From a virus: a stretch of 64,000 bases of DNA. Positions 4,026 through 30,253 of the stretch are shown here, one piece after another (position 1 is the first letter of the stretch; each line of letters starts with the position of its first letter). Below the pieces are notes generated by a model. It saw nothing but the letters and a program-made list of their open reading frames with translations, ran no database searches and was not told the DNA's origin. The DNA lies in IMG/VR virus record IMGVR_UViG_3300005758_000132, positions 32,001 through 96,000 of that record. The stretch is one strand, 5' to 3'. The translations under genes were made by a program, and so were the position numbers.

Positions 4026-5084
4026 TCATTTGTAGGATGCTGCGAGCTTGTTCAAGATGGCGGACATCTCAGTAGGCGTAATGCGCGAACCGTCATCTTT
4101 ACGAATCGCGTCAGCGAATCGCCAGAGGTGCTTGGTGACAGAATCGAGGTTGGCGGGTTGCGCTACCGTCTGTTCCATGCGCATACGAATCGCAGCCTCT
4201 GAAGCTGTCTTGGTAGCGTCTTTAATACCACCCACGGTGTCCGCCACCGCCGCTTTCAACACAGCGCGGTACTTGCCGTAAGTTCCCTCTACGTCCGCGT
4301 TGAAGGCGCGCTTGAGGATGTAAAGCGTAGCCATCTCCGTCGTGGCCTCTTCCAGCAGCGCTCCGGGACCGGAGTACATGCTGAGAATGTTCTCGCCCTC
4401 TTGGCTTTTGCTACATGAGTGAATGACCTCGTGCAGCACGGTGTGAAGGCTTGACGGAACGTTAGCCGCAGAGATGTCTGCGGCACCTGCGGTAGCCGGT
4501 GGCGAGAACTTAGGTTGTGACAACTGACTAGACGATAAGTTTATCCGACCTGAGTTCGGCTCAAACGAGCCATACACGTTTTTCGGTAACTTGATGACAA
4601 CAAGCTCTGTTGTCTGATGAAAGTTCTTCGGATCGCCCGTGTGCCTATTTGGGGTCATGCCGTAGCTGGCCACTAGCGTGTTGACCTCTTTCCGCAACTC
4701 CTGACCTAGCGCGTGCATCTCGTCTGGCGTCGTCTTAGCCTCAGCCATCCTAGACGCCAAATAGCTATACGTCTTTGGTAGGAACGGTCTAGCGTGGCAC
4801 CAGCCGCCATGGGTATGCGTCGCAGGTGCGTAGTTGACAGCCGCAGCCGCGCCGGCTTGCGGAGCGCTTTTAACTGCCTCGTGTACGGTGCCCCACGCTG
4901 ACTTGAGATCGGGATACCAGTACTCCGTTTTAGTGCCCACCTTTCGAAAATACCCGCCGTGCTTTGATCCAGGTACGGGGATGAAGCCTTTTGGCGGCGC
5001 GTTTTTTACGCGCAAATCGACAACAGCCGCTTTCACGATGACGTCTTCAGCCCAAGACTGAAGCTGCTGGTAGGTGGTTTTCAT
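4026..5084 (-). CDS. PPxG..WYP-tagged protein with zincin metallopeptidase domain
   Basis: start reassigned to ATG 5084 (CAGGAG RBS); tag at 4911-5000; HEVIH motif plus downstream EEATTE. Confidence 0.8.
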   Translation of the reverse strand: MKTTYQQLQSWAEDVIVKAAVVDLRVKNAPPKGFIPVPGSKHGGYFRKVGTKTEYWYPDLKSAWGTVHEAVKSAPQAGAAAAVNYAPATHTHGGWCHARPFLPKTYSYLASRMAEAKTTPDEMHALGQELRKEVNTLVASYGMTPNRHTGDPKNFHQTTELVVIKLPKNVYGSFEPNSGRINLSSSQLSQPKFSPPATAGAADISAANVPSSLHTVLHEVIHSCSKSQEGENILSMYSGPGALLEEATTEMATLYILKRAFNADVEGTYGKYRAVLKAAVADTVGGIKDATKTASEAAIRMRMEQTVAQPANLDSVTKHLWRFADAIRKDDGSRITPTEMSAILNKLAASYK

Positions 5085-5115
5085 AGGCGAGTCTCCTGGT
5101 ATGGCGAACGCTACT

Positions 5116-5775: not shown

Positions 5776-5790
5776 AAGCTACCTCCAGCG

Positions 5791-6696
5791 TCACAGCCTT
5801 GGATGATCCCTCTCAAAAATTGCCTTTTCACGTTGTAGTGCTTGGACTAACGCCTTCTCGTCGTTGACGTCTTCTTTGCTACGGCGAAGTCGCGCTAAAG
5901 CCGGCAGCACTATGGGCGTGGGTCGGGCGCTGTCGAGTATTGATCGAATAGACGACGGCGTTCGCTGAACGCGCTTCTTTAGGTTTTTTACGAGCTTTTC
6001 TAGATATGCGACTGTCTGTCCCTTGTCCCGTTCTCTTGTCGCTACCCACATTATATCTTGCTCATTCCAATTCATGTTTTCGCCACCAGTCCAATCCATA
6101 ACCCATAGATTGAACTCTTTGCCTGTTGCTAGGTTATCTTCGGTTGAGTATCCAAGGTAACCCTTTGGCGGAGTTGGTCGCAAGTTTTCTATGGCCGCGT
6201 TGCGGTTTTCTGGGGAAAGTGTAGCTACATATTTTATGTCTTCTATTAGTTTTTCTAAATATCCAATAACTTGATTAGCCGCCGGCGTACCATCCTCTTC
6301 AGACAGCAATGCAAGGTCTAGGACTGTATCCTCGTCATAGTCAAACCTATCGGCGCGTTCGTCATCGTCAATACCTAGCGCGTCTAATATGTGTTCACGA
6401 AACGCGTTACCAGTCATGACATAGTGGTCTACGTCCATCTCCGCCGCGTGTGTGGGAGAGTCTACATCGCTTTCATTAACGTCTGGATGCTCTCGCACGT
6501 CCATCCACGGGCGCGAGTTAGGATACCAAGTCTGATACTTGTTCCCAACGCGCTTGTGAAAGCCGCCTTTCTTGCTTCCTGGGATAGGGGTGAAGCCCTG
6601 AGGAGGCTTGTTGGCTTCTGCCTTTTGAAGGCTGTTGTAGTTTGACTTCTCAATACGATCAGCCCAGAGATTGAGTTCACGAGTATAGTCTTTCAT
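5791..6696 (-). CDS. PPxG..WYP-tagged protein with two novel helical repeats
   Basis: leader DYTRELNLWADRIEKS; tag at 6520-6609; GGAG RBS. Confidence 0.8.
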   Translation of the reverse strand: MKDYTRELNLWADRIEKSNYNSLQKAEANKPPQGFTPIPGSKKGGFHKRVGNKYQTWYPNSRPWMDVREHPDVNESDVDSPTHAAEMDVDHYVMTGNAFREHILDALGIDDDERADRFDYDEDTVLDLALLSEEDGTPAANQVIGYLEKLIEDIKYVATLSPENRNAAIENLRPTPPKGYLGYSTEDNLATGKEFNLWVMDWTGGENMNWNEQDIMWVATRERDKGQTVAYLEKLVKNLKKRVQRTPSSIRSILDSARPTPIVLPALARLRRSKEDVNDEKALVQALQREKAIFERDHPRL

Positions 6697-6717
6697 AGCA
6701 GTGCTCCGCTCACTTGT

Positions 6718-7542
6718 TCAGTACTTGCCTTTCATGTGCAAAAGAATTCGCGTCCGCGCGCTACTAAGATTCGGCACGTAGTAGTCAACGATGGCAGCGC
6801 CGCCGGTCGAGGTCTTGAACTCGTCTGGCGCGTAGATCAAATACCCGTCTGGCTTGGCAGCAACTGATTGACCGCCGCCGGGCTTCTGCTTATTCGTGGG
6901 TACGATACGGTAGCCGTCTGACGTGGTGTAATATCCAGCCTGTCCCTTGATCTTATCGAGAACGATGTCCTCAGCGCTTTTCGGCGCGTTTTCCAACAGC
7001 TGCTTCGCCTTGTCCGCCTGCTTGTATTTCCAGCTAAGAATTTCCTTGGCGTGGTTAGGCTTAGCCGCCGCTACCGGCGCGTTCGGATAGAGGTGCTCGT
7101 GCAGCGCGTCTACAAGCTCTCCGTGCGAGCTTGCTTCAACTTCTTTGTCGCCTACGCGACCTGCGTGATACTCTACGTCACCTTCCATAACCGAGACGGC
7201 GTCAGCCGTGGTCTTACCGTCAGCCGCCGTGAGGCTGAATCTTGTAGTGGGTAGGTAATCGCCGAGCGTCATTGTTTGTGTAAGACCAGAGCGGACACGC
7301 TCGACGTTATCCATGCGTCCCTGCGACAACCCGTGCCCAGGGTACCAGGTGTGATACGTGTTTCCGACGAGCTTGTGAAAGCCGCCTTTCTTCGACCCCG
7401 GGATAGGCGTAAATCCCTGAGGAGGCTTGTGCAAGTCATCGTGCTGAATGGGTTGCGCTACGTTTGGGTTATAGGTCGGCAAGATGATGGCCTTCTCGAT
7501 ACGATCTGACCAAAGGGCGAGTTCGCGCGTGTAGTCTGTCAT
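6718..7542 (-). CDS. PPxG..WYP-tagged hypothetical protein
   Basis: start reassigned to ATG 7542 (AAGGAG RBS; same ggagcactgctATG context as at 6696); tag at 7339-7428. Confidence 0.8.
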   Translation of the reverse strand: MTDYTRELALWSDRIEKAIILPTYNPNVAQPIQHDDLHKPPQGFTPIPGSKKGGFHKLVGNTYHTWYPGHGLSQGRMDNVERVRSGLTQTMTLGDYLPTTRFSLTAADGKTTADAVSVMEGDVEYHAGRVGDKEVEASSHGELVDALHEHLYPNAPVAAAKPNHAKEILSWKYKQADKAKQLLENAPKSAEDIVLDKIKGQAGYYTTSDGYRIVPTNKQKPGGGQSVAAKPDGYLIYAPDEFKTSTGGAAIVDYYVPNLSSARTRILLHMKGKY

Positions 7543-7566
7543 AGCAGTGCTCCTTGTTCTGTTGAC

Positions 7567-7595
7567 GTTATACATAAAAACGTTTTTTACGTCAA
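7567..7595 (-). promoter_or_regulatory. sigma70-like promoter with AAAAACGTTTTT palindrome
   Basis: TTGACG-17nt-TATAAC; flanked by a 10-bp inverted repeat at 7559-7568 and 7589-7598. Confidence 0.65.
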
Positions 7596-7602
7596 CAGTA
7601 AA

Positions 7603-8463: not shown

Positions 8464-8530
8464 GGCGCAGTCTCCCTCGTATTGGCTAAATTATTCCATC
8501 GCCTCAGTGTTCTTCAGAAGAACGAGTTTG

Positions 8531-10867
8531 TTATCGCGAGGTCCTAACGCGCTCGCTGCGATATTGCGATTTCTCTCTACCCAGTTTGGTAGCTAGCGTT
8601 TTGAAATACTTTAACAAAGTTTGATCGTCGTCGAATTTAGCAGCCTCCACAACAGCCTTTTCGTCCCAGTTGACGTCAACGCCAGTCGCTTCTTTGATAG
8701 CGTCGTTAACGTCAGAAGGTTTCATCTGACGTTTTTTATACACCTCCTTGTGTAGTCCAAGGATGCGATTATGCAAAGAGTTCATTTCTCTCGCATCGTC
8801 TGGGTCTTCGTTTTCGCTCAACCTATTGTATCTATTCTGCAAATAAGCCATCTCCATTTTCTTAGCTACATTTTCAAAGTGATTCAATAAGGCGGTGTCT
8901 GACGAAGACGCCACGGCCCAGACGACGTCTTCTTCCTTCCAGTTCATGTCTTTCCCGGTCCATTCCTTGACGACGTCGTTAATCAAGCTGTCGTTTGTAT
9001 GTAAGTTATCCATAGCTTGTGCGTGGCCTGGATCGTTCTCGTTCTTCCCTTCGTGGCTCTTTACTCCATGTCCGGGATACCAGGTCTGATACTTGTTTCC
9101 AACGCGCTTGTGAAAGCCGCCCTTTTTGCTTCCTGGGATAGGGGTGAATCCTTTAGGAGGCTTGTCTGCCTTATGAAGAGCGTCGTCAGTCTCTGATAGA
9201 AGGTTGTTGTAGTTGGACTTCTCAATACGATCAGCCCAGAGATTGAGTTCACGAGCGTAGTCTTTCACGGTCAATTCTCCTCTTTCTAACGTGTCGTTGT
9301 TTGTAACGCGAGAAGCCCCCTTTTTGACTTCGTCAACTTCTTCATAGGCCCCGCTTTCGAAGAAGTGAGGATAATACTCCTGAGCGTACTCTTCATCAGT
9401 GTCGCCTTCATGTCCGTCATAGCCAGAATCGCTCTCAGATGACGCGAGCTTGAGCGCGTCCTCCAAAAGCTCTCGACCCTTTGCGGTCATATTGCGAAGC
9501 GGATGCAGCGAGCCTTTCTTGCCCTTAAAGAGCGCGTTGATCTCGTTGTCGGTAGCGCCTGACCGCTTCATCCACGTCACGAAAAGCGACGGGTGTACAT
9601 AGGAGCCGCGGCTCATAGTCATACCGTTATCAAGTCTCTCCGCGACTCGCGCAGAAACCATATCGATTACGGCAGACAGCGCTTTTATGTCTTTCTTCGC
9701 GTTACCCGTCAACTTGATTGGAGGCACTTGCGCCAGCTCGTCCGCAGCAGTCATTGAGCCTTGCAGCGTTCGCAAGTCCTTCTGCTTGAACTTACCAAAG
9801 TGCGTCTTCATGACCTTATTGGTGTCCGCGTCAGTTGCCGAGAACAGGAAGCCATCAGGTGTCGGATTTTTCGCGCGGTCGTGTAACTCTTTTACCAGCT
9901 CTGGGTCGGTCACAACACGCGTGTTCTTTTTATTTGCTTTGCCGATAAACTGTATGCGCACCGACGTCGGCGCAGTATCGTTGTCAAAGCTGAGATGTTT
10001 TGGCTTGAGCGTAGTTGCGCCTGTGGTGCCGATTTTCTCTCGTCCAAACTTGTCGACCTTGGTAGCGCGCGCTGCGGCTTCACGACTTCCAGGTCGAAGT
10101 CCAGTCTCTTCGATTAGCGCAAGAGCTACAGCCGCGTCTCGCTCGCGCTGCGATCCGGTAGTCATCGCCTTACGTAGAGAGCGCGTCGCGGCCTCCATTT
10201 GAGGAACGAGGGTGGCCAGACGAGTCCACTTCACGTGTGCAGTGCGACGGTCATGCTCAGTTGTATAGGCGAACTGGCGCACACCATCCTCGTTCGTCCA
10301 GCTTAGCACCGCTCCCTGATGGACAGCGTCAGTGCCAAGCTGACTAGGTGTAAAGTGTTCTTTGAGATTCTTAGCGGTGAGTGGGATAGGACGATTGAGT
10401 TTCATCGCGCTGTATTTTTTTCGAATATCAGCGTGCGGGTCTTCAGGCGCCTCAATCGGATTTCCTTCCTCGTCGAGCTTCGGCTTTTTCGGTTTATCTG
10501 ACGCCTTCTTATCCTTCTCAAAACGCCGAACGTCAGTGTTCTGCATTTGATCGAGAAATTTACGGTGCCGCTCGCCGATCGATTCGTAAGCCTTTTGGTG
10601 CTGCGCGTCGCTTAGCTTCTCTTTCTTGTGCGTACCAACACCGACGCCGGGGTACCAGCTCTGCCAACCGTCAGCAGTCTTCTTATGCCAACCTCCATGC
10701 TTTGTCCCTGGAATAGGTGTGAAGCCTGGCGGCGGGTGCTGCTTACTACCGACGTTGCCGGCAACTCGCGGTTCAAGATCAGCGCTACCTGACTCAGAGT
10801 CTGACGTAGACTCCTTAGCAGTTCTTCGGGCCTTAGAAATATCGCTGTCGTTGTCGTTGTTCAGCAT
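8531..10867 (-). CDS. doubly tagged polyprotein containing DNA topoisomerase IB
   Basis: TopIB motifs GLRPGS, FIGK, KDLRT, LDN, SYVHP; tags at 10649-10738 and 9074-9163; in-frame internal GTG at 9268 with AGAGGAG RBS. Confidence 0.85.
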   Translation of the reverse strand: MLNNDNDSDISKARRTAKESTSDSESGSADLEPRVAGNVGSKQHPPPGFTPIPGTKHGGWHKKTADGWQSWYPGVGVGTHKKEKLSDAQHQKAYESIGERHRKFLDQMQNTDVRRFEKDKKASDKPKKPKLDEEGNPIEAPEDPHADIRKKYSAMKLNRPIPLTAKNLKEHFTPSQLGTDAVHQGAVLSWTNEDGVRQFAYTTEHDRRTAHVKWTRLATLVPQMEAATRSLRKAMTTGSQRERDAAVALALIEETGLRPGSREAAARATKVDKFGREKIGTTGATTLKPKHLSFDNDTAPTSVRIQFIGKANKKNTRVVTDPELVKELHDRAKNPTPDGFLFSATDADTNKVMKTHFGKFKQKDLRTLQGSMTAADELAQVPPIKLTGNAKKDIKALSAVIDMVSARVAERLDNGMTMSRGSYVHPSLFVTWMKRSGATDNEINALFKGKKGSLHPLRNMTAKGRELLEDALKLASSESDSGYDGHEGDTDEEYAQEYYPHFFESGAYEEVDEVKKGASRVTNNDTLERGELTVKDYARELNLWADRIEKSNYNNLLSETDDALHKADKPPKGFTPIPGSKKGGFHKRVGNKYQTWYPGHGVKSHEGKNENDPGHAQAMDNLHTNDSLINDVVKEWTGKDMNWKEEDVVWAVASSSDTALLNHFENVAKKMEMAYLQNRYNRLSENEDPDDAREMNSLHNRILGLHKEVYKKRQMKPSDVNDAIKEATGVDVNWDEKAVVEAAKFDDDQTLLKYFKTLATKLGREKSQYRSERVRTSR
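9074..9267 (-). repeat. dispersed DNA repeat (leader plus tag) matching 6520-6695
   Basis: 9205-9267 vs 6633-6695: 60/63 nt identical; 9074-9163 vs 6520-6609: about 82/90 identical (counted by eye). Confidence 0.9.
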
Positions 10868-10960: not shown

Positions 10961-12703
10961 TTAGTTTTGTCGAACCTTAACAACAATACTTTGACCCTTG
11001 GTCACGCGCTCAGCCCATTCGAAAAGATCACCCGTATTCGCGCCCTTCTTCACCTTCGTTTGCGCCTTTTTGCTAGCCGCTATGACTTTAGCAAGCCATG
11101 GGCTTTTTTTCGCAGCGTTATACACGTCTGGAGACACAGCTCCAGTGCTCGAAGTTATTAAACCTAGAACTGCTTCGGCAGCTTTACTGGGATCGTTGTC
11201 ATGAGTAAACTTCATTTCGTTTTTGAAGTCTTTCCAAAACGTTTTTGCCTCATCGGTATCGCTACTCGAAGGGCCATCTGATAGCGCTGCGGTAAGAGCG
11301 CTGTTGCTTTCATTGCTTTTAGACGTGGTTGTCTTCGTAGACGCAGCCGTTTGCGCTGCCTGCGACGCGCGTTCAGCTCGCGCAGCGTGAACGGCCTTGG
11401 CGCGCTGAGAGCGGGCGTGAGTATCGCGGTAGCCTTCGAGCATCGCGGCAGCGGCCTTGCGAGTCATCTTGACTGAGTGACCTGTCTCAGTATGGCGGAG
11501 CGTCACGTGTCCTTTGGTAGCCTTGTCGACGTGCCAGTGACCTTCCTTGCCGTTATGGCGTCCGCGGATACGCGCGCCTTCGCTGAAATGGCTCTCGTGC
11601 GCGAAGGCCTTACGCTTAGGCATGGAGTAAATATAGCGCCAAGGACGCTTGGGATTTCCAGTCGCAATACGGCTCAGGTATTTGCGCGTGCCAGCCTTCT
11701 CAAGCGCGTCTCCTGCGTTTGCAGCTGACGCTTCGACCTTAGCGTTCGCACGCCACTGACGGCAGGACCAATACCGCGCGGTGAGGACGTCGTCCGCGGT
11801 GTCGCACTTGTGGCGTGCGTTGAAGCTCGCGCGACGCGCGGGGTTGTCACGGCGGATCTCCATATTCGCGTCGCCAAACCGTACGACGCGGACATCGCCG
11901 TCGTCGTTCTGAGCGTACACGACAAACTTCTTGACTCCGAAACCCGGCTCTCCCTCGCGGATGCGGCGCGGGCTATTGTATTCGGAAGGAACGCCGACAG
12001 CGGCACCCTTGTAGAGCGATTTTCCGAGTGACTTGTTCTTGGCGTCTGCGAGGAGCTTTTCCGCCTTGGCGCGGATGTCGTCCTTCGCGCTCTCTGGGAT
12101 GTTGGTCATCGCTAGGCGAGCAAGCGCGTTGCGCAGGTGTGGCAGGTCAACGTCGCCGCGCTCGTTGCGATACGGCAGATGACGAAGCGTGCGCGGAACG
12201 GTCTTGCCTTCCTCGTCCTTGGCACCGCGGTTTTCTACGTAGAAAAACGCGGAGTCTGGCAGGTTGTTGACGCGCGCCGTAGACCACTCAGCCTTCTCGA
12301 TGATGGCGCCCTTCACGGTGGCCATCTCGCCGTGGCAGTACGGGCAAGAAGGATCGTTGCCGTCACAGCAGCTGCACGCGTAGCACTCGTCAACGTACTC
12401 GTCTTCCTCGCCATCCTCAAAGAGCGAGTCGAGCAGCGCGTCAGCGTTATCCTCGCTGAGCCTATGACCCACGATGAGCAGAGCACGCGCGCCCGCGAGC
12501 GGCAGCTTGCCCGCGTAAACGTCAGTCAGCACCTTGCGCAGCTCCTCAAGGTGCTCCGCATCAGCCTCTTCCTCTTCCTCGTCAAGCGCTAGCTCGCTCT
12601 CGTACTCGTCATTATCGGCGTCATCAGTATCGATGTCCAACGTGTAGTCATCGAAGGAAAACGGATTTGCGTAATCTTCATCGTAGCCCATGGTGTACCT
12701 CAC
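10961..12703 (-). CDS. multidomain capsid-associated polyprotein
   Basis: acidic N-terminus; Cys cluster; LPDSAF...HLRNALAR module; KKFVV..RFGD..ARHKC..YWSC module; KY..R..WRYIY motif; C-terminal GP..FW..WLA repeat; modules separated by xK-[AGS] sites. Confidence 0.75.
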   Translation of the reverse strand: MRYTMGYDEDYANPFSFDDYTLDIDTDDADNDEYESELALDEEEEEADAEHLEELRKVLTDVYAGKLPLAGARALLIVGHRLSEDNADALLDSLFEDGEEDEYVDECYACSCCDGNDPSCPYCHGEMATVKGAIIEKAEWSTARVNNLPDSAFFYVENRGAKDEEGKTVPRTLRHLPYRNERGDVDLPHLRNALARLAMTNIPESAKDDIRAKAEKLLADAKNKSLGKSLYKGAAVGVPSEYNSPRRIREGEPGFGVKKFVVYAQNDDGDVRVVRFGDANMEIRRDNPARRASFNARHKCDTADDVLTARYWSCRQWRANAKVEASAANAGDALEKAGTRKYLSRIATGNPKRPWRYIYSMPKRKAFAHESHFSEGARIRGRHNGKEGHWHVDKATKGHVTLRHTETGHSVKMTRKAAAAMLEGYRDTHARSQRAKAVHAARAERASQAAQTAASTKTTTSKSNESNSALTAALSDGPSSSDTDEAKTFWKDFKNEMKFTHDNDPSKAAEAVLGLITSSTGAVSPDVYNAAKKSPWLAKVIAASKKAQTKVKKGANTGDLFEWAERVTKGQSIVVKVRQN

Positions 12704-15236: not shown

Positions 15237-16736
15237 TTAGGCGGCCTTGGTGGCGCAGTTATCGATGATGGCCCACTTCTGCGGCTGCTTAAAGAAGAGC
15301 GCGCCCATCATGTAAATCATGAACGGGATGCTCGCAGAGGTCTGGCCGAGCGGACGGCGGATGGCCTCCATGAGCTGCGAGAAGTAGAGCACCTCAGACG
15401 AGAACTCGCCGATGTAAATCGGCTTGCGGAACGGACGGCGATGGTTGAGGTCGGTCCACGAGGTGTTCGAGACACCGGCGGTGCCGCGAGCAAACTGACC
15501 GATGTAGTCGAACTCGGTGCCGTCCTTCTCAGTACGGTAGACGCGCCAGTAACGGAGCATACCGCTCGTGTTCTTGGTGCCGGAGATGGCTGAGTCATTG
15601 AACACGAAGGTCGGCGCGTCGCCAGCCGCGGTGATGACAACGCCGTTGACGCTGATAGCGCCAGCGGTACCGCGATCACCGACCGCCACGAAGCGGTAGT
15701 CATACTCGCCGACATCGCCAGCGCGGAAGCGGCTGCCAGTAACAGTCGAGTTGACGGTGGGGGTGCCGGACACTGCGCCCACGTTGGGAGCGCCGCCGCC
15801 AACGGAGGTCGTCGGGAAGTTCGACGGCATCGAGATGAGCGGCATGGTGTACACCGGCGCGTCGCCGTACTCGGTGGTGAGCGCAAGCTCCTGCGGGCCG
15901 CCGATGTAGGACTTGACAGCTGCGCCGCCACGATCCTTGGGATAACGGCCAGCAGCGGCGTCGAGCGTCGTGAGGACGCGCTTGACGCGCGAGTCAGTGA
16001 ACGCCTCAAGGTCGAGGGCGAAGCGTCCGTCAGACTGAAGCTCGCCGACAACGTCCTCGATATCCTCAGAGGTAGGAGCCTCGCCTTCAAGGTCGACAAC
16101 GAGACCGCCGCCACCCATGATGGACGAGCGGAAGCCGTTGAACTGGAGCGCCGAAACGCTCGCGTCACCCTCGATAAGCCAGCGCTCGATACGACCGAGG
16201 AGCTGCTTGACGCCGAGCTTGGTGCGGGTTTCAAGGAGCGAAGCGCCGCCGTCGAGACCGCCGGAGAGCACGGCCGCGGTGTCGGGGACTTCGATATTCT
16301 CCGACATGAACTTGAGCTGCACAACGATGCGCTCGAACTCAGCCTCGGAGAAACCATTGATGCCACCTTCCGCGAAGAAGGGGTCAATCGCGTCGCTGCC
16401 CTTGGCCTTCACAAGGGTAGCCTCGTGAATAAGCGACTTGGCAACCGAGACCTTCTCAAGACGGCGCCAGAGCCAGAGGTGACGCTCGCGGAAGCCAACG
16501 TCATTCAGCGTGCCCTGAATGGACTGAGTCTGAAGGGGTCCCATCGAGGCAGTGCCACCGGCGCCGCCAACGTACGAGGGGTCAGGCGGGTAAGCCGCAG
16601 TCTCCGCCTTGTGGAGCGCGTCACGCTCGTACTCGGAGATCATATTGGCAACGCGGCTAAGCATTCCGTCGTTAACACCGGCTCCGGGATTAAATCCGCC
16701 AGCCGTCATCGAGATATTGATACCCATGTTAATCAC
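15237..16736 (-). CDS. major capsid protein
   Basis: 499 aa after protease and scaffold; strong GC3 codon bias; LQTQSIQGTL and FFAEGG segments; candidate maturation site LHK-AE; followed by a terminator. Confidence 0.85.
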   Translation of the reverse strand: MINMGINISMTAGGFNPGAGVNDGMLSRVANMISEYERDALHKAETAAYPPDPSYVGGAGGTASMGPLQTQSIQGTLNDVGFRERHLWLWRRLEKVSVAKSLIHEATLVKAKGSDAIDPFFAEGGINGFSEAEFERIVVQLKFMSENIEVPDTAAVLSGGLDGGASLLETRTKLGVKQLLGRIERWLIEGDASVSALQFNGFRSSIMGGGGLVVDLEGEAPTSEDIEDVVGELQSDGRFALDLEAFTDSRVKRVLTTLDAAAGRYPKDRGGAAVKSYIGGPQELALTTEYGDAPVYTMPLISMPSNFPTTSVGGGAPNVGAVSGTPTVNSTVTGSRFRAGDVGEYDYRFVAVGDRGTAGAISVNGVVITAAGDAPTFVFNDSAISGTKNTSGMLRYWRVYRTEKDGTEFDYIGQFARGTAGVSNTSWTDLNHRRPFRKPIYIGEFSSEVLYFSQLMEAIRRPLGQTSASIPFMIYMMGALFFKQPQKWAIIDNCATKAA

Positions 16737-16768: not shown

Positions 16769-17479
16769 TCAGACAGTCACGTTGATGTCAAAGCGCTTGA
16801 GAATTTCTTCGACCGGAAGCGCAGAGTTTTCCAGCGTCGAAACAGCTTCGCCGATACGGACGATGACGTCCTCGCTGCCGCCGCCCTTCATCAGGCGGCT
16901 CTGCTCAGCGACGAGCGCCTTCTGAAGCGCGCTACGATTAACGGTCGGGGCCTGCGCAGCCGCGGCGGACTTGACGAGACTCTGCTCAGCCAGATCGTTC
17001 GGATGCGGCTTAGCAGCCGAAACAGAGCCGCGCGGAGCGCCGGTCGTAACGAGCTTGGCGTCAAGCGACTTCTTGATCTCATCGATCGAGTTGCTCAGCG
17101 AAGCAACATAATCAACGAGCTGCTCGACGAGCTTACCTTGCGCGAGCGAGCCCTTAACGAGCGCCGGCATGGTCTCATTGGTAAAGGAAACAAGCGACTC
17201 GACATTGAGCGCGGTGCCGCGAAGCATATCGCTCGTGTCTTCCGCCAGCGCGGGGCCACCCTTATGGATAGCCAGGCTGGTGTTGACGTCAATAACCTCG
17301 ACGTCAGCAGCCAGGCGCAGGTCGCTTACGGCGTTGACAAGGTCATCGATGGAGAGGCTGACAAGCCCTTCCTCAGCCACATTACCAGCGGCGACTTCAG
17401 ACTTGACGAGGCGATCGACGGTCGCGGCGTCGAGCCCACTTGCCTTAAGCTGCGCACGCAGCGTCTTCTCGGTCATCAT
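16769..17479 (-). CDS. putative scaffolding protein
   Basis: helical protein between protease and MCP with seven [LIV]xK-[ASG] sites. Confidence 0.7.
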   Translation of the reverse strand: MMTEKTLRAQLKASGLDAATVDRLVKSEVAAGNVAEEGLVSLSIDDLVNAVSDLRLAADVEVIDVNTSLAIHKGGPALAEDTSDMLRGTALNVESLVSFTNETMPALVKGSLAQGKLVEQLVDYVASLSNSIDEIKKSLDAKLVTTGAPRGSVSAAKPHPNDLAEQSLVKSAAAAQAPTVNRSALQKALVAEQSRLMKGGGSEDVIVRIGEAVSTLENSALPVEEILKRFDINVTV

Positions 17480-17503: not shown

Positions 17504-18343
17504 TCAGCCCGCCACAACGCGGGTCATAATCTGAGAGAGGCACTGCTTCCAGGCAGCGCTACCCTTCAGAGCAGCAGCGACCGCCAGGTCAAGCTCGTTA
17601 AGGTTAAGCCTAACAGCGAGTGCCGTGAGGCGCTGGAGCGGATCAACTTCCACTCCGTTGGCGGTTGCATAATGGGCGGCGTCCGGAAGGAGGGCCGATA
17701 GCCCGTCATCCAGCACCTCAGATTCATTCATGGCTTTACGAAGCATGGCTCGTCCTTCTGGGGTTGCGCGTAAAGACGCGAGGATCGGATCGAACCAAGC
17801 GTCGCGGTTTCTAGGTGCGCCTGTGATAACGACATTGGCGCAGTACCAGCGCTTTACGTCGCGGCGGTCATTCTTGTCACGCTCTTGTGCAGCGCCCTCG
17901 ACAGAATATCCAAGCCTGACGCGGTTAGACGCGCGGTTAATCCTCAGGATCTTTTCCCAGAGCTGCTTGGCAACCGGCTCGTCGTTAATCCAAAGACGGG
18001 TGGTGAGGTAATAGCAGGGAACACCGTCACGGGTCTCGCCCCGCTCAAGGTCCACCGGCTCGCCCACCGGATTAAAGACGCCCGCCGGATGCTCCATAGT
18101 GACGGCGCCAGAGTCGGCAGCAGTCATTTCACCTTTGGCCAGCGAACCCAAAAACGGCGAAAAATCCGCGCCGTCAACGCGTAAAATCTCGCCCTGCATG
18201 TCACGTCGCTCTGACGTACAAATGCCGCGGATGAGCCCCTGCTCGCCGCCCTTGGTGATAGGCTCGATTCCTGGTGTCCAAGTCGAGATTCTTTCGCGCG
18301 CGTTCATGCTGTCACCGTTGTACTTATTTAGCGACAAAGTCAA
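17504..18343 (-). CDS. prohead maturation protease
   Basis: IRGICTSERRDMQGE, MEH, GYSVEG and VVITGAPRN motifs of HK97/U35-type serine proteases; true start may be ATG 18307. Confidence 0.85.
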   Translation of the reverse strand: MTLSLNKYNGDSMNARERISTWTPGIEPITKGGEQGLIRGICTSERRDMQGEILRVDGADFSPFLGSLAKGEMTAADSGAVTMEHPAGVFNPVGEPVDLERGETRDGVPCYYLTTRLWINDEPVAKQLWEKILRINRASNRVRLGYSVEGAAQERDKNDRRDVKRWYCANVVITGAPRNRDAWFDPILASLRATPEGRAMLRKAMNESEVLDDGLSALLPDAAHYATANGVEVDPLQRLTALAVRLNLNELDLAVAAALKGSAAWKQCLSQIMTRVVAG

Positions 18344-18353: not shown

Positions 18354-19136
18354 CTAGACTAGGTTCCAGTTACTGTCGAACGACTTGCCGGGTGGAATTG
18401 GTACGACCACGCATCTGCAATTAGGGTGCAGCGGAGGTCTAGGCACTGCACCGGACATCAAGTCCTTGACGTCAAATACCTTGGGCGAGCCGCTTTTGTC
18501 CAAAAACGCGCCCTTACATTTTGGGCACGCGTCTTTCTGCGGAACCACCGCGGCCTTCTTGGTTTTGCCTGCTTGTATGGTGGACACGATAACGCCGTCA
18601 TTGAACGCGGCTTGAAGCTCAGTCGTGACGATGCGCTTTACGTCTTTTTCCGTACCGTCAAACACAGGCGTCAGGCGCTCGATAGCCTTTTCAATCAGCT
18701 TATCGCGCGGCAGACCTAGCGATATCGTGTCCGCCAGCACGGAACGGAGCTTGGCGCGCACTGCGTCTTCGATTCCAGTAATCCGCAGCCCCGCACGCTC
18801 GCGCACATATTTCCATGCCTCTAGTTCTGGGGGCTTGAGCCAGTTCGGAAAGGCTTTGGTGGCTGTTGCACCTTTCGACTCCCCGCCAGGTCTGTACGCT
18901 TTTTCAATGGGGGCGCGGTCCTGAATCCAGCGCTTTATGAACTGCACCCACTTTGAGAGCTTCCACGTCCGCGACTTGTTTATGTCAGTATCCGCGAACG
19001 CTAGACCCATTATGAGGCTCAGCTCGATCGGCGATACGTCCCAGTCTTCCAGACCGATAATTACGCCGTCGAGATATGCGCGCCGGAACTCGTCGCTGAC
19101 ACGCGCGGCCTCTTTATCTGGGTCGAATAGCAACAC
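18354..19136 (-). CDS. MuF / SPP1 gp7-like head morphogenesis protein
   Basis: RIVTTELQAAFNDG, CPKC and PPLHPNCRC motifs. Confidence 0.88.
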   Translation of the reverse strand: MLLFDPDKEAARVSDEFRRAYLDGVIIGLEDWDVSPIELSLIMGLAFADTDINKSRTWKLSKWVQFIKRWIQDRAPIEKAYRPGGESKGATATKAFPNWLKPPELEAWKYVRERAGLRITGIEDAVRAKLRSVLADTISLGLPRDKLIEKAIERLTPVFDGTEKDVKRIVTTELQAAFNDGVIVSTIQAGKTKKAAVVPQKDACPKCKGAFLDKSGSPKVFDVKDLMSGAVPRPPLHPNCRCVVVPIPPGKSFDSNWNLV

Positions 19137-19138
19137 GC

Positions 19139-19660
19139 TCAGTACGCTCGCATCTTCTTGCCCTTCATGACGTGATCGTGCATCGAGTCCATCGCGGCGC
19201 CGATCGTCCCATGAGCCTCAGGCATGAGCTCCTTACCACCTACAGAAGGCGTGTGCACCCATCCGCCACCCTTAGCGGCCTTCGAGAGCATCTCTGTCCG
19301 CAGGTTGCTAAAATTACGCATCGCCACGCTGCCGTTGGCAGGCTCAACCACACCGGAGAAACGGCTCCAGCGCTCGTTCGGCACCTGGTTGTTATCAGAC
19401 GTGAGCGTGTAGAAATCCTTGTATCGGCTGAGCTCGTTGATGCCGAAATCGGGGTACCACGTAAGGTAGGACTCGCTATTGAGGTCACCCTTGTAGCAAC
19501 CGCCCTTCATGCTGCCCTCAAGCGGCTCGAAGCCTTCAGGAGGCATCTTGCTCTTATCAGCGGGCTCAAGGTCCTGAGTCTGCAACGCTTGCAGCGTATT
19601 GGGCTCGAATCCGTTAACCCCGCCCCAACCCATACTAATCGCGTTCATGTTTGTGTTCAT
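19139..19660 (-). CDS. small protein with a divergent PPxG..WYP tag
   Basis: start reassigned to ATG 19660 (or 19648); tag MPPEGFEPLEGSMKGG...TWYP at 19451-19546. Confidence 0.7.
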   Translation of the reverse strand: MNTNMNAISMGWGGVNGFEPNTLQALQTQDLEPADKSKMPPEGFEPLEGSMKGGCYKGDLNSESYLTWYPDFGINELSRYKDFYTLTSDNNQVPNERWSRFSGVVEPANGSVAMRNFSNLRTEMLSKAAKGGGWVHTPSVGGKELMPEAHGTIGAAMDSMHDHVMKGKKMRAY

Positions 19661-20128: not shown

Positions 20129-24706
<4,578 letters not shown>

Positions 24707-24721
24707 AGTACACCTCGCGTG

Positions 24722-26656
24722 TTAGACGCGCACCTGAACAACGATTGGCTCACGCTGTGAGCCGCGTGAAACGATAGACCAAGGCTTGCCCGGACGCCAC
24801 GTTGGTGGAGGCTTTACTAGGCCTCGCCTGACGGCTTCTGCCACGGGACCTGCAAGGCTCTTGGTGATCTGGTTTATCGAGCCGCCGTGCTTTGGGTCTC
24901 GATACAGCGACGCCATAAGCGAGGCGTCATCGAAATCCTCGAACGGAGCCTCAGGCTCTTCTTCCTCACCGGGCGGCATCTCTCCACCCATGCCCATATC
25001 CATACCGCCACCCTCGCCACCTTGCTGCTGGTTCATGGCGTCCATGGACTGCGCTTGCGAGATGTACGGGTTGGCGATGACGTCGCCGGCGGACCCTGGA
25101 ATAGGCTTGAGGTCGTAGCGAGCGCGGATCTCGTTCACTGACATGAACGACTCTAGCATCTTCTTGTCGATATCGAGCTTCTCGCCCTCAGTCAGCGAGT
25201 CAAAGCCGGTGAACTCGAACACGAAGGTCTCACCGTCCTTGAAGCGCGGCAGGAACTTGGAGTTGATCCAGCTCTCAATCGACCGCAGGCGCGGGCGCAA
25301 GCCACGCGCGCGGCTCATCTCATATCGCTCCGCCGGTCCGCTGCTGTTGAGCGCGGATTGGCCTTCGTTGCCGAACTGCATGTTGAGCGCAGCAACCGGG
25401 TCGACGCCATACGCAGCGCACACCAGCTTGACGTTGTAGAAAAGCCAGTTGGTGAACTCCATCTCCTTGTTGGAGTTGGAGAGGTTGACAGACTTGATGT
25501 CTTCCTTCTGCGACGGGTCGAGCTGGATGATCGGCATCCGGCGCTTAGCCGCTGCCTGCGAAAAGTTAGCGTCGAAGGTGCGGCGCATCGCAGAGAAAGC
25601 GGTGCGGTCCATCGTCGACATGATCGCGAGCAAGGACGAGGAGTGAATGCCGGAGGTGAAGTTGACCGCGTTGTAGTTTTCCGCGCGACCGAAATTGACT
25701 AGCACGTTCCAGAGCATGTGAAGCTCAGGGAATCCGTAGTCGACAAAGCGCATCCCGACACGCGGGTTGCGGATGCCGTAAATCATCTCCGGCTCGTCCC
25801 ACTCTGCCACCACGCGATTCAGAACCCACTGGACGTAGCCAGACTCGCCCCACTGCCCGCGGTCATAGTACTGCTGCGAAGGCTCGCGACGACGCACAGA
25901 CTGCGCATCGTACACGAACATTCCCATGGGCTCAGTGTTGCGGAAGCCAGAGGCCTCTAGGATCTCGATAGGCGCAGCGTCGTAAACAAGCGACTCGCGC
26001 ATGAAACGCCGAACCGTGCCTTCAAAACCTCCTGACTGATACTTACCGCCGCCACGCTCAATTACGCGCTCGATTTCGGTCATCCGCAGCTTCTCAGCCT
26101 TAGTCGGATGCCGGCTTGTGTCAGCGAGCCTCAGTCGAAAGCCAAACGTATGCGCGACCGTCTGGCGCTTGGCAAACTCGCACACCTCTGCGACAGCGTG
26201 ATTGATGACCAGTGCAGGCACTGACATCGACGCCAGCTTCTCTAACATCCACCACGGCATCCCGTCAGTGCCTGGATGCGTAGGATTGAGATTCGCGTCT
26301 GAAGTGATGCGACCTATCGCGTCAACGGGATCGAACGCGTAACCAGCGGGTCCCGGCTCCTCTTTCTTAGCCGCCTTGAAGAGCGCATCAACCGGGTCCG
26401 GTACGTCAAACGCCGGCGATGACGCCGTTGGCATAACAACCGCGCCCATATCGGGCGCACCACCGCCGAGGAACGCTCCTGGTCCTGACTTGACGATAAC
26501 CTCGTCAGGCGCGGTCTGCTCCGCGGCCGGTGTCTGCGCCGTGTCCTGAGGAGGTCTAGCAGCGTCAACAAACGCCTCAGAGGCGCGGCGGGCTAACGAC
26601 CCTGCCGCTCCCCCTAGAGACGCTGCTAAGCTGTTCAAACGGTCCATAATCGACAT
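24722..26656 (-). CDS. portal protein
   Basis: 644 aa; YGFPEL, EMEFTNWL...VCAAYGVDP, GLRPRLRSIE and SVNEIRARYDLKPI motifs of HK97/SPO1-type portals. Confidence 0.9.
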   Translation of the reverse strand: MSIMDRLNSLAASLGGAAGSLARRASEAFVDAARPPQDTAQTPAAEQTAPDEVIVKSGPGAFLGGGAPDMGAVVMPTASSPAFDVPDPVDALFKAAKKEEPGPAGYAFDPVDAIGRITSDANLNPTHPGTDGMPWWMLEKLASMSVPALVINHAVAEVCEFAKRQTVAHTFGFRLRLADTSRHPTKAEKLRMTEIERVIERGGGKYQSGGFEGTVRRFMRESLVYDAAPIEILEASGFRNTEPMGMFVYDAQSVRRREPSQQYYDRGQWGESGYVQWVLNRVVAEWDEPEMIYGIRNPRVGMRFVDYGFPELHMLWNVLVNFGRAENYNAVNFTSGIHSSSLLAIMSTMDRTAFSAMRRTFDANFSQAAAKRRMPIIQLDPSQKEDIKSVNLSNSNKEMEFTNWLFYNVKLVCAAYGVDPVAALNMQFGNEGQSALNSSGPAERYEMSRARGLRPRLRSIESWINSKFLPRFKDGETFVFEFTGFDSLTEGEKLDIDKKMLESFMSVNEIRARYDLKPIPGSAGDVIANPYISQAQSMDAMNQQQGGEGGGMDMGMGGEMPPGEEEEPEAPFEDFDDASLMASLYRDPKHGGSINQITKSLAGPVAEAVRRGLVKPPPTWRPGKPWSIVSRGSQREPIVVQVRV

Positions 26657-26683
26657 TTGGTATCCCCCAGTCAGCCCGCAGCG

Positions 26684-29600
26684 TTATCGTCGACGCGTTA
26701 CCTTGGAACGCACGATGCTACCGGACTTCCAGAACATGGAAACGCCCCGCTCGTCTACCTTTACCCAGGTATTTTCTTCGCCTAGAACCGGCGCGAAACC
26801 TACAGGCGGCTTAGCCATACGAGTGTCCGCCATCAACTTGAGCAAGTCGGGGTACTTGCCGCCGATGAGCATATGGCGCGCGAGCTTGGCCTCAGAGGTG
26901 CCGTTGTACTCTTCGATGAAGCGCTTGAAGGACGCGCGCAAAGCCTCAGTGTCAATCGCGCGCTTAGGCTCGCCGTGCGTCACGTAAGGCAGCACAACGC
27001 CACCGCCAGGGGCCTCTAGCGCGAGCATCATAGCGTTGCTAGCATCCGCCTGTGACCGCCAAGTGCTGCCCTTGCTGACGGGCTCAGATGCCAAATCAGA
27101 GTAGTCTCCGTCCACAGCGCGTTCCCCAAGCGCTGCGCGAATCTCTCTTTCGTACATAAAGTCGTAGTACCAAAGCTCCGCCTGATTCTCGTAAGAAATC
27201 TGCTCGTACTGCATACCGACAGCCTTCTTCAGTTTTAGAAGCGCTGTCTCCGTCTCGTCTAGCTCGCGTAGAAACACAAAATGTTTATTTATTCCGCCTA
27301 GTTTCGACGTTACCTTGGAGTCGTTCTTTAGCTCAGGATGGTTCTTAGGGTCACCTCGATATACCTCTTCAACCGCATACGATCCGCTCAGGATCGTCTC
27401 ATACTCGCCTGTGTGAACGCTCAACTTGTCTACCCGTAAGCCTCTAGTAGCGTTCCTGACAATATACAGCGTTGAGGCGTCACCAGTGCCGCCAAACTGT
27501 GTTAAAACTTCAGTTGATGAACTAGAGCCATCGTTCATCGTAACAACTAGCCCAGCGTGCAACGCTTTGACTGAAAACTCGTTTGTCCTCATGTTGCGGT
27601 AAAGTTTTTTAGGTACAGGCACCGCTGCGGGTCGTCTGTTACCTAAAATCTGAAGAACGGCGTTATTGCGATGAACTGAGTCATCCGGAAAGTTAGGTTT
27701 GATGTCGATGATGTATGGCTTGAAATTATTAGCTGCGGCAGTAGTCCCATCCTTCGTTATCTGTCTTTGCGCGTTATAGACATCGCGCACAGCTTGCTCT
27801 GATATGTTAGGCGCAAGTCCTTGCGATTTATGATCTTTGAGCAAGCCGACGTAGTTATAAGCGTCAAAATAGTTATTTCCATTGGCGTGCAGCCAAATGT
27901 GCGCACGAGCCAACTCTTCCTTGTATTCCATGGTGAACGTCTTCGGATCGCCAAAGTCAGTCGCCAAGTACTTAGCGCCGTCCTTGCCGGTAGCGAATGT
28001 AGCGCCTCCGAGTCCGTTGTCTCCGAGTGCGCTAGACAGCGCTGCGGCGTCCGCCTTTAGCTCGTCCAATAGCGCATTGTTTTTGGCGATGGACACGTTC
28101 CACTTTCCAGCAGTGGGCGACTTCGCCTGTACAGGCGAACTAGGTGCTACCGCTACCGGCTTTCCATAGGACGTACCGTATTGCTGTGTATATGTTTTCT
28201 TCAGCTCATCGATAGTCTTCTGCATCGCTTCACTGTTGATAATTTGTGACGAGGCAGCGTGAAACTCAGCTATTTTAATCGCGTCCTTTTTCAACTCTTC
28301 CGCACACTTGGTGTAAGCGCTAATCAGACGCTTGTTTGTTAGGCTACCCTTATGCTGAGACCAATCTGAGCTGTCAGGCACATAGAACTCGTCGGAAGGT
28401 GGGAGCGCGTCCCAAGCCTTTCCTGCTTCACCTTTAGGCCGCTGAGATTTCAACTTTTTCACTGCGTCCTCTAGCTTCGCAGAGGCATTGTTTCGATCAG
28501 CGGCCGTGGCCAAGAAGTCTATCTTGCTTGAGTATGGCAACTTTCTAGGACGAAATGCTTTCACATAGCTATCATTGGCAACATATTTGGAAGCGCCGGG
28601 GTAGCTTGCCAAGAGCTGCTGAACCGCGTGCATAGCTGCTGATTTAGACTCTGTCTTTTGCTTCTTGGTAGCACCCCATGAAGTCGTTACTTCTACTGTC
28701 TCGTAATTGAGCACGTCTAAGTTCGTTGGCGTTACTTCAGAGTCTTGAATTAGACTAAAGTCCTTATTGTCAAGCGCGTCAATGACGGCATTCCAGTCGC
28801 TCTTATTGGAATCCGTCATGTTGATATTCCATGGATACTTGAGACTACCTGACAAATTTTTGTCCTTGGCTATGTTTACTATAACGTCTCCTAAAGAGTA
28901 CAGTTTTGGAGAGCCGGGCGCAGTAACCGATAAGTTGGTAACGTCTTTGAACGCGCTACCAACTGCGTGATTAGTTTGAGTGATACCAGTAGGCCCGGAA
29001 TACGCCGCGCCTGAACTTGAGCTTGAAGCTATAGAACCTGGTACTTCAAAAAGCTCATGCACGTTAATGGTGGTCTCAGCTTTCGCAGTGAAGCAGTCAG
29101 TGATTAACGCCTTTCCTATAGGCGACTCGTAAAAATTGCTCTCGTATTGGTAGCCGGTAGCCCAGGTGTCGTCAGTAGCCGGCGATTGCTTGAAAGCTGC
29201 TTTAACATACGCAGCACGCTTTTTCAGGAACTCGTCGTAGGAGCTAGCGTGCTTCTCGTATTTTTTGACGAGCATATCAACCATTGTGCTTAGAGCTTCC
29301 GCGGCTTTAATCGTTGCGGCGGCTGCAATAACGGCTTGCTGCTCCGCGGTCAGCTCTATCGGTTTAGCTGCGATCTCTTCTTCGATCTTAGCCGCTTCGA
29401 CGATGACCTTGGCGGGCGTTGCGTCTGGAATGATGTCCTTGACAGACTCAGCAGCCTTCGAAGAAACGTCCTTCGCCTTATCGCCCAGAGCCTTCAAGTT
29501 CTTGATCTTGGCGACTGCGGACTGGAGGTCTGTCTTAGCAAACACCGCTGTGGGCTCGCTTACAGCCTCGTGTCCCTGGTCGAAGATAACATTCTCAGCG

Positions 29601-30253
29601 TGCCATGCGCCTGACGCGTCCTCGTCAAGCTCGTGTGCTTCGCCGGAGTAGAGCGCTTCTTGATTCGGTTCAATCTTCCAACGCGACATGAGCGCTTGCA
29701 GGATCTCCTGCGGCACGTTGCTCGCGCTGTCGATGCTACCGTCAGCCTTGACGCGCATAAGCGAGTAGGTACCCGACACGTCACCGGGCATGACCTTGAA
29801 CTTGGCCTGATGGTCAAGAGACGCGAACACCTTGTTGAACACGGAGTCTTCAAGCGCTGGGTCCGTTGGGTCCCAGTTATCTGCCTTGACCTTGACGATT
29901 TCGTACTGGTTGCCGTCAGCGTCGCCAAGCACAGCGATATTCGAGGTTTTACCGTGTATCGATTGCTCTAGGTTAACAATAATCTCGTGCCAAAGCGCCG
30001 CTTTATTACCGAAAAACTCTTTTAGCGCGTCATAGCTGGCACCTTTCACGTTATAACCAAGCTCGGTCAACAGCTTTCGCGCGTGTAACTCTAAGTACGA
30101 CGTGCCGTGCTTCTCTAAAGACTCAGTTACCTTTTTCTGAAAGTCAGGATCAGGATACCAGTACAGGGTTTTCTTGCCCGTCTTCTTAAACCAGCCGTGC
30201 GAACGACTGCCTGGGATGGGCATGTATCCTGGAGGGGGCTTCTGAGGTTGCAT
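26684..30253 (-). CDS. 1189-aa tagged protein with an R-S-ExE ADP-ribosyltransferase domain
   Basis: tag at 30152-30241; degenerate tag at 26726-26812; LYR...SSSS...EYETIL at about 27260-27700. Confidence 0.75.
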   Translation of the reverse strand: MQPQKPPPGYMPIPGSRSHGWFKKTGKKTLYWYPDPDFQKKVTESLEKHGTSYLELHARKLLTELGYNVKGASYDALKEFFGNKAALWHEIIVNLEQSIHGKTSNIAVLGDADGNQYEIVKVKADNWDPTDPALEDSVFNKVFASLDHQAKFKVMPGDVSGTYSLMRVKADGSIDSASNVPQEILQALMSRWKIEPNQEALYSGEAHELDEDASGAWHAENVIFDQGHEAVSEPTAVFAKTDLQSAVAKIKNLKALGDKAKDVSSKAAESVKDIIPDATPAKVIVEAAKIEEEIAAKPIELTAEQQAVIAAAATIKAAEALSTMVDMLVKKYEKHASSYDEFLKKRAAYVKAAFKQSPATDDTWATGYQYESNFYESPIGKALITDCFTAKAETTINVHELFEVPGSIASSSSSGAAYSGPTGITQTNHAVGSAFKDVTNLSVTAPGSPKLYSLGDVIVNIAKDKNLSGSLKYPWNINMTDSNKSDWNAVIDALDNKDFSLIQDSEVTPTNLDVLNYETVEVTTSWGATKKQKTESKSAAMHAVQQLLASYPGASKYVANDSYVKAFRPRKLPYSSKIDFLATAADRNNASAKLEDAVKKLKSQRPKGEAGKAWDALPPSDEFYVPDSSDWSQHKGSLTNKRLISAYTKCAEELKKDAIKIAEFHAASSQIINSEAMQKTIDELKKTYTQQYGTSYGKPVAVAPSSPVQAKSPTAGKWNVSIAKNNALLDELKADAAALSSALGDNGLGGATFATGKDGAKYLATDFGDPKTFTMEYKEELARAHIWLHANGNNYFDAYNYVGLLKDHKSQGLAPNISEQAVRDVYNAQRQITKDGTTAAANNFKPYIIDIKPNFPDDSVHRNNAVLQILGNRRPAAVPVPKKLYRNMRTNEFSVKALHAGLVVTMNDGSSSSTEVLTQFGGTGDASTLYIVRNATRGLRVDKLSVHTGEYETILSGSYAVEEVYRGDPKNHPELKNDSKVTSKLGGINKHFVFLRELDETETALLKLKKAVGMQYEQISYENQAELWYYDFMYEREIRAALGERAVDGDYSDLASEPVSKGSTWRSQADASNAMMLALEAPGGGVVLPYVTHGEPKRAIDTEALRASFKRFIEEYNGTSEAKLARHMLIGGKYPDLLKLMADTRMAKPPVGFAPVLGEENTWVKVDERGVSMFWKSGSIVRSKVTRRR

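Follow-up and report, generated by a model that had tools for sequence, protein, structure and literature searches.

A portable beta-hairpin module heads payload units in the head genes of uncultured phages and may be a handle for virion cargo

Introduction

To our knowledge, the way in which a phage selects the proteins that it packs and injects is understood at the molecular level in very few systems, T4 and P1 above all. The packing of polyvalent proteins has mostly been inferred from their fusions to MuF or portal domains. In encapsulins, a short conserved cargo-loading peptide common to unrelated enzymes directs them into an HK97-fold shell; these peptides, of about 10 residues, usually stand at the C-terminus and take on structure only when bound, and they involve neither a protease step nor ejection. 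In phage T4, internal proteins and Alt are loaded via a cleavable N-terminal targeting sequence (PMC9026906). The Dar system of phage P1 (DarA, DarB, DdrA, DdrB, Hdf and Ulx) consists of head-packed antirestriction proteins, some of them processed, that are injected with the DNA, as cited in the survey by Iyer et al. (PMC5512222). Here we describe a 29-residue module, predicted to fold as a beta-hairpin, that recurs in seven genes of a 64,000-nucleotide window (bases 32001-96000) of the 109,013-bp IMG/VR virus record IMGVR_UViG_3300005758_000132, which is complete according to CheckV. Like the polyvalent proteins of phages and conjugative elements, MuF-fused effectors among them (Iyer et al. 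2017, PMC5512222), the carriers of the module are large multi-domain effectors encoded beside portal and terminase genes.

Results

A short motif recurs in seven late genes

A first-pass annotation of this DNA had pointed to ten intervals that share a motif, and had seen the motif in no core structural, early or replication protein. Translated on the minus strand, each of the ten intervals contains the motif, giving nine clean copies and one divergent copy of PPxG[FY]xP[IV]PGSKxGG…WYP in seven minus-strand genes that lie between the terminase and tail sheath genes. Matches to a six-frame regular expression (PPxG[FYW] and then WYP) are confined to these seven carrier open reading frames (ORFs). 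Run against the whole record, a profile of the nine clean copies recovers exactly nine matches, with E-values from 7e-25 to 2.5e-19; each lies within the window, in one of the seven named ORFs, and there is none elsewhere, which agrees with the absence noted from core structural, early and replication proteins. Chance is ruled out as the source of this distribution. Eight positions, PP.G..P…G…WYP, are invariant in the nine clean copies.

Positions below are those of the window, all window features named lie on the minus strand, and an arrow marks a candidate cleavage point. The 1189-aa protein carries the hairpin at residues 5-34 (30152..30241; profile E 1.3e-21) with no leader before it, and a C-terminal variant, PPVGFAPV…MFWKSG (26726..26812), that scores weakly against the profile, at about 5 bits. 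Homologues of this protein (P0003, P0092 and P0055) retain the variant as PPxGF…YWK[AS]G, and we therefore regard the tenth copy as real though divergent. The 1525-aa protein has two copies, one at residue 30 (24533..24622) preceded by IAK↓G at 24632-24643 and one at residue 148 (24179..24268) preceded by ILK↓S at 24278-24289. The most divergent clean copy (19451..19546) is in a 173-aa protein encoded just upstream of the MuF gene. Translation and profile place two copies in the 778-aa protein: one heading its topoisomerase IB unit at residue 45 (10649..10738), with an ISK↓A site at 10829-10840, and one heading its second unit at residue 570 (9074..9163), behind the leader ELNLWADRIEK↓S and LHK↓A (sites 9215-9226 and 9167-9178). 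Leaders also precede the copies of three further small carriers: MTDYTRELALWSDRIEK↓A (site at 7489-7500) in the 274-aa protein (hairpin 7339..7428), MKDYTRELNLWADRIEK↓S (6643-6654) and LQK↓A (6619-6630) in the 301-aa protein (6520..6609), and MKTTYQQLQSWAEDVIVK↓A (site at 5028-5039) in the 352-aa protein (4911..5000).

The module occurs in hundreds of protein clusters and lies in head modules

A word-indexed search found 55 proteins that carry the motif, and a profile run exhaustively against 1.84 billion cluster representatives gave 335 matches with E<=1e-3, of which 96 reached E<=1e-10, the E-values of the weakest matches being modest for a profile of 29 residues. We fetched 163 of the profile-matched proteins for copy counts. 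Together they hold 237 copies, with one copy in 102 proteins, two in 53 and up to six in some. In 86 of the 163, the first copy is found in the N-terminal 60 residues, and copies at the C-terminus are rare. Six copies occur in P0056 (3298 aa), and L056:805-11766 is one 3653-aa ORF with the hairpin at residue 417. The payloads that Pfam names in these relatives include InPase, ddrB-ParB, Zeta toxin, Sno/SNF2 helicase, C5 methylase and SAM lyase, along with RelA/SpoT, ART-PolyVal, LPD1, topoisomerase IB, DUF5661, DUF6582 and others. Roughly 50 of 70 scanned tagged proteins lack a Pfam domain (about 70% of payloads).

The motif, which the first-pass annotation had not recognised as a named domain, is matched by nothing in Pfam, PHROGs or the PDB. 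When eight tag segments were compared with Pfam at E<=10, only a chance match to DTC (15.5 bits) appeared, no Pfam LPD model (LPD1-40) matches the motif, and a sequence-profile search of the PDB left the hairpin without a match. Structural comparison of the hairpin by VIA-align over 48,161 chains (best Z 2.8) and with the ESM Atlas gave nothing usable. By tblastn, 50,697 cultured phage records contain no true match to the motif; the sole hit, in Burkholderia phage FLC9 (E=0.5), proved to be a chance resemblance once translated. A literature search found neither the motif nor a Lys-specific prohead protease code described anywhere relevant.

We examined the genomic surroundings of the relatives in two ways. 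In fetched IMG/VR loci, tagged genes adjoin the portal gene (often in the gap between TerL and portal), follow MuF, or precede the protease or major capsid protein (MCP) gene, and the structural genes of these loci are homologous to those of the window at 25-43% identity. An unbiased DNA-pattern scan of metagenome contigs gave 43 loci, 43/43 of which carry the motif by profile. Among the 23 loci of at least 6 kb, BLAST detects a structural neighbour in 15 and PHROG a TerL in one more (16/23); the remaining loci consist of giant ORFs throughout or have phage DNA-modification genes at the end, and none of the 23 has a non-phage context. A search of 185,579 species-representative genomes returned two matching contigs, both resembling phage DNA binned into metagenome-assembled genomes. 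The candidate hosts, which are suggested by such binning only, are Planctomycetota, Myxococcota and Gammaproteobacteria. As predicted, the profile search of metagenome proteins that had been proposed as a check on the motif gave diverse payloads of effector type, with the genes in head modules wherever their context was readable. In one locus (L048:722-4017), the tagged gene comes immediately after a group of genes of 7-deazaguanine/queuosine type (transglycosylase, QueC, GTP cyclohydrolase and QueE).

No similarity to the MuF protein of the window was detected in the seven carriers or the 163 fetched profile hits. We had considered that the tag and MuF might be mutually exclusive, alternative addresses, and dropped this idea because fusions of the form MuF-site-hairpin occur in L008, with a hairpin of the type described here, and in L004 and L017, with a related GPRGGKW type. 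Two other short Gly-rich motifs, GPYIGPRGGKW…HTIPW and GSRGGHVIGHTxSGKPIY, follow L-x-K-[AGS] in polyvalent proteins (P0012, P0026 and P0009; L004 and L017) and may be related to the hairpin. Precomputed annotations place neither of them in Pfam, and the GPRGGKW-type peptide has no match in cultured phages.

Payloads change exactly at the end of the module

P0019, a protein of a close relative, is 92% identical to the 301-aa protein over residues 1-59, ending exactly at WYP, and is unrelated beyond. Within the window, the leader-plus-hairpin DNA of the 301-aa gene (6472-6696) is nearly identical to that of unit 2 of the 778-aa gene (9026-9250), and the two diverge directly after the WYP codons, which points to a recent duplication or gene conversion limited to the cassette. 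Because identity ends at WYP in both comparisons, the module boundary is a real recombination joint.

A recurrent L-x-K-[AGS] site precedes the hairpin

The usual element upstream of the hairpin is an amphipathic stretch ending in L-x-K-[A/S/G]. Such a site lies within 16 residues upstream of 114 of the 192 non-N-terminal hairpins (about 60%), compared with 10% at control positions, and in about half of the copies the G of PPxG sits 5-9 residues past the K. A leader of 8-25 residues ending in L-x-K-[AGSN] is found in 51 of 165 copies that have such a site within 45 residues upstream. Many tagged proteins start with M..F.DLIK-A and then the hairpin. At least 15 hairpins, that of the 1189-aa protein included, start within 16 residues of the initiator Met, where there is nothing to cut.

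The same site is concentrated in proteins of the prohead. The scaffold-like ORF of the window has seven copies of [ILVMF]xK[AGS] where shuffled sequences predict 1.2, and its counterparts in three related phages (L002:12947-13708, L003:3944-5356 and L019:205-891, with 7-13 copies of the site) give 9 against 1.2, 13 against 2.2 and 7 against 0.9, so that the site is over-represented 6-8 times in these four ORFs. All three MCPs examined have it at residue 39-53, and portal N-termini and proteases have sites too. Since repeated sites in a scaffold resemble the code of a maturation protease, we infer cleavage after the K; L-x-K↓[AGS] is probably the cut site of a Lys-specific prohead protease. A cut at this position would lie upstream of the hairpin, and the hairpin would therefore be kept on each mature unit. 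If the code is right, the long tagged proteins would be polyproteins, cut into units that start a few residues before the hairpin.

In 31 of the 163 relatives (P0009, P0013, P0023, P0035, P0050, P0077, P0138 and others; none in the window), a Q[LM][GS]LF(G) peptide (QLGLF, QMGLF or QLSLF) stands between an L-x-K-A site and the hairpin. We take this peptide to resemble the binding motif of the bacterial beta sliding clamp.

The hairpin is basic, aromatic and strongly conserved

With 15 sequences, AlphaFold models the leader as a helix (predicted local distance difference test score, pLDDT, 55-70). In this model, of the 301-aa protein, residues 31-60 form a small beta-meander (pLDDT 81-84) with strands FHKRV and KYQTW. 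The 29-residue consensus is PPxGFxPIPGSKxGG[YFW][RH]K[RK]xGxx[WY]x[YT]WYP. Over 200 copies, this core averages a net charge of +3.9 and 5.7 aromatic residues, whereas the following 30 residues are neutral; positions 12, 17, 18, 19 and 23 hold basic residues that can replace one another. When phages with portals only 27-43% identical are compared, their most similar hairpins are 55-79% identical.

Carriers and payloads within the late module

The late module begins with the large terminase (TerL, 31052-33031), followed by a ParB-like gene, the 1189-aa protein, the portal (24722..26656; phrog_12 at 5e-29, PF04860), which has tagged genes on both sides, the 1525-aa protein, the 173-aa protein and a stand-alone MuF-like minor head protein of 260 aa (18354..19136; phrog_115 at 2.3e-13, PF04233 below the cut-off). 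It continues with the head maturation protease (17504..18343; phrog_1028 at 5e-13), the presumed enzyme for the L-x-K↓[AGS] cuts, the scaffold-like protein (16769..17479), on which the putative protease code is based and which lies between protease and MCP, the MCP (15237..16736; phrog_752), several small proteins and a 580-aa protein. The last part comprises the 778-aa protein, a virion structural protein, the three proteins of 274-352 aa and the tail sheath (579-3068). The MCP has a candidate propeptide site, LHK↓A, at residue 41-44, and its alignment to the Thermus phage MCP begins at residue 52. It is only about 25% identical to its nearest cultured relatives, those of Thermus phages phiMa and Cumys, and the next-nearest, in Herelleviridae, match only in the C-terminal third; we therefore regard the virus as a distant, uncultured phage of myovirus type.

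The carriers, with the untagged 580-aa neighbour (10961..12703) counted, amount to about 15.8 kb and are interleaved with the portal, MuF, protease, scaffold-like, MCP and sheath genes, close to the 15.5 kb among head and tail genes that the first-pass annotation had estimated. Probable true starts shorten three of their ORFs, to 4026-5084, 6718-7542 and 19139-19660. With the tag masked, BLAST among the eight head-region proteins leaves just two short, weak similarities. Residues 689-798 of the 1525-aa protein resemble residues 435-545 of the 580-aa protein (E 2e-7). The central domain of the 580-aa protein (phrog_7595) is found inside tagged proteins of other phages, and the protein has seven L-x-K-[AGS] sites where 1.9 are expected.

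Only two payloads in the window reach Pfam thresholds, and they confirm the names topoisomerase IB and nucleotidyltransferase given at first pass; the ADP-ribosyltransferase and pseudokinase named alongside them could not be confirmed, and the zincin is a lead only. The topoisomerase IB domain (PF01028, 9e-17) spans residues 212-418 of the two-unit 778-aa carrier (8531..10867), in which the tag and topoisomerase are followed by a leader, a second tag and a payload without an assigned name. The nucleotidyltransferase is a poly(A)/CCA-type head domain (PF01743, 1.4e-10; phrog_2244) at the C-terminus of the 1525-aa carrier (20129..24706), encoded just downstream of the portal. The 1189-aa carrier (26684..30253), between the ParB-like gene and TerL on one side and the portal on the other, is conserved in related phages, and an AlphaFold model of its residues 1-400 has no fold match in the PDB or BFVD. 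No PHROG family covers the small carriers. The remaining carriers are the 173-aa protein (19139..19660), whose ORF can extend to 19804, the 274-aa protein (6718..7542), the 301-aa protein (5791..6696), whose relative P0019 has the same first 59 residues with another payload, and the 352-aa protein (4026..5084).

The 352-aa protein contains an HEVIH motif, and M78/ImmA-type zincins and a viral cluster linked to MuF are among the proteins that its Atlas model resembles; as a lead only, this payload is probably an M78/MPTase-like zincin. Its closest Atlas neighbour (template modelling score 0.63) is a viral protein cluster in which half of the members have MuF. From that cluster, we think it possible that payloads of this HEVIH type may reach hosts by MuF fusion in other phages.

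Discussion

We propose that each payload unit of these head-module effector proteins starts with a portable two-part cassette. The first part, which is optional, would be a short amphipathic leader whose last residues are L-x-K, with A, S or G next; the prohead protease would cut there. The second would be the 29-residue basic, aromatic beta-hairpin, left by the cut at the start of the mature unit. Long polyvalent proteins would be chains of such units, separated into individual effectors inside the prohead, and the hairpin would be the handle that brings each unit into the head and holds it there, so that the effector enzymes could travel with the genome and be ejected into the next cell. The handle might dock to a prohead component while the head assembles, bind the packaged DNA once the cut has been made, or do both.

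Part of this proposal is plain from the data. The module exists and is portable; it is confined to head modules, stands at the start of payload units and comes after a site with strong enrichment in scaffolds. Its head-only distribution, the types of payload, the swap at its boundary and the link to the protease site together argue that the carriers are virion cargo units and that the hairpin has its place in the handling of cargo, and an unnamed module ahead of enzymes of injected-effector type in 335 clusters therefore looks like a portable cargo handle. Cleavage, packaging, ejection and the binding partner of the hairpin are steps that we read from these patterns. Overall, we give a probability of about 0.55 to the hairpin being a handle that loads or retains virion cargo. 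Within this reading, a DNA tether and protein docking carry roughly equal weight: retention after the cut, the single copy per unit, the conserved charge and the high conservation favour a DNA tether or another invariant partner, and N-terminal hairpins without a leader favour a role in loading. A role after maturation, in DNA binding or host targeting, fits about as well as loading does. The stronger claim, that hairpin and L-x-K↓[AGS] code form a general transferable system in which any protein behind the cassette would be loaded, cut free and ejected, is one that we make only tentatively and would sooner doubt than assert.

Several observations weigh against a cargo handle. The hairpin is far more conserved than the portals, which speaks for a partner that does not vary, for instance DNA or a host protein, rather than a capsid protein that evolves fast. 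If the cut lies upstream, the hairpin would stay on the protein, which the T4 targeting sequence does not. One address would be enough for a polyprotein, yet there is one hairpin per unit, and the separate cleavable leader upstream could be the real address. About 40% of non-N-terminal copies have no site within 16 residues, and MuF fusions, which already have a head-incorporation domain, can also bear a hairpin after the site. Packaging is itself a deduction, and the cultured phage records searched include no relative. The first-pass annotation had cast the motif as a portable address that loads a swappable set of injected effectors. Its portability holds, given the diverse payloads, the head-module context and the swap at the end of the tag; its function as an address sits less easily with a hairpin that is often internal and would stay on after the cut.

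These same points bear on a host-side role, in which the hairpin would have no part in packaging and would guide ejected effectors to a conserved structure of the host, be it DNA or the nucleoid, the ribosome, RNA polymerase or the region of the sliding clamp. That each mature unit has one hairpin, kept after the putative cut, would suit such a role, as would conservation far above that of phage structural proteins, the conserved basic and aromatic make-up and the presence of hairpins in MuF fusions. The Q[LM][GS]LF(G) peptide, which looks clamp-motif-like to us, suggests a cluster of host-interaction peptides at the new N-terminus in the 31 relatives that have it; the seven carriers of the window, however, have no clamp-like motif. 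The motif is also restricted to head-module genes, never appearing in early or replication genes of this genome or the fetched loci, and the payloads differ greatly in their likely targets. We therefore consider host targeting unlikely, though worth keeping in view.

Could the hairpin instead serve the protease, as an exosite that positions it at L-x-K↓[AGS] a few residues upstream and does nothing more? The tight spacing between site and hairpin and the strong enrichment of the site upstream of hairpins would suit such punctuation. Scaffold, MCP and portal, however, bear sites without any hairpin, the hairpins close to an initiator Met (the 1189-aa protein among them) have nothing to cut, and some two-fifths of the non-N-terminal copies lack a nearby site, which makes an exosite improbable in our judgement. 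Most improbable of all is that the motif has no dedicated function and is an N-terminal stretch handed down within a single paralogous family that expanded, with duplication and recombination spreading it: recent duplication is visible in the DNA and the carriers all belong to a single phage lineage whose portal, protease and MCP genes are homologous, but the eight positions invariant here are near-invariant across 175 copies from distant phages whose flanks and payloads cannot be aligned, the payload swap falls exactly at the module boundary, and the module is retained on fused and split gene forms alike.

If the hairpin is a cargo handle, a short, strongly conserved module without a name would mark cargo units in hundreds of protein clusters of uncultured phages. 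On the stronger claim of a general transferable system, it would be a second cargo tag beside that of T4, mechanistically different and staying on the mature effector, and the candidate protease code would make the giant polyvalent proteins of this lineage true polyproteins matured by the capsid protease. Because about 70% of payloads have no Pfam domain, the module offers a search handle for new injected anti-defence enzymes. Should the hairpin suffice for loading, it could be used to fill phage capsids with chosen proteins.

Among described systems, encapsulin cargo-loading peptides are comparable by description only: there too, one short tag is found on unrelated enzymes, and here the tag is a 29-residue hairpin. 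In P1, Dar packaging relies on a hierarchy of partner proteins, and no shared peptide tag is described in the accessible text (PMC5512222). The polyvalent proteins are closest by gene content. Several effector domains in one polypeptide, a neighbourhood of packaging and head genes and, in the relatives, the characteristic domain set are all found here; the 778-aa protein consists of two units, and relatives carry up to six tags and several Pfam domains. The domains common to polyvalent proteins (PMC5512222) and tagged relatives are InPase, ddrB-ParB, ART-PolyVal, RelA/SpoT, Zeta toxin, Sno/SNF2 helicase, LPD1 and zincin. A text search of that survey (PMC5512222) found no mention of the hairpin motif, and the processing enzymes proposed there are zincin peptidases, whereas our candidate is the prohead protease. 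Effectors fused to MuF have it in the same polypeptide; for the seven carriers, MuF is a separate gene.

By function, the closest system is the T4 capsid-targeting sequence (CTS) of IPI-III and Alt, in which, as in our proposal, unrelated proteins have a common N-terminal signal, are loaded into and processed in the prohead, and are injected (PMC9026906). T4 cargo includes an ADP-ribosyltransferase (PMC9026906), and ART-type payloads occur among the tagged relatives. Where they occur, the short leaders (M..F.DLIK↓A, MKDYTRELNLWADRIEK↓S) resemble the CTS in length and position. The CTS, however, has about 10 residues and is cut off by the prohead protease at L/I-x-E, whereas the hairpin has 29 residues and follows the putative L-x-K↓A/S/G cut, so that it would not be removed. 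Unlike the CTS, the hairpin is often internal and occurs once per unit, and the two have no sequence similarity. What our analysis adds to these systems is the L-x-K-[AGS] site, which is new here and stands ahead of about 60% of non-N-terminal hairpins.

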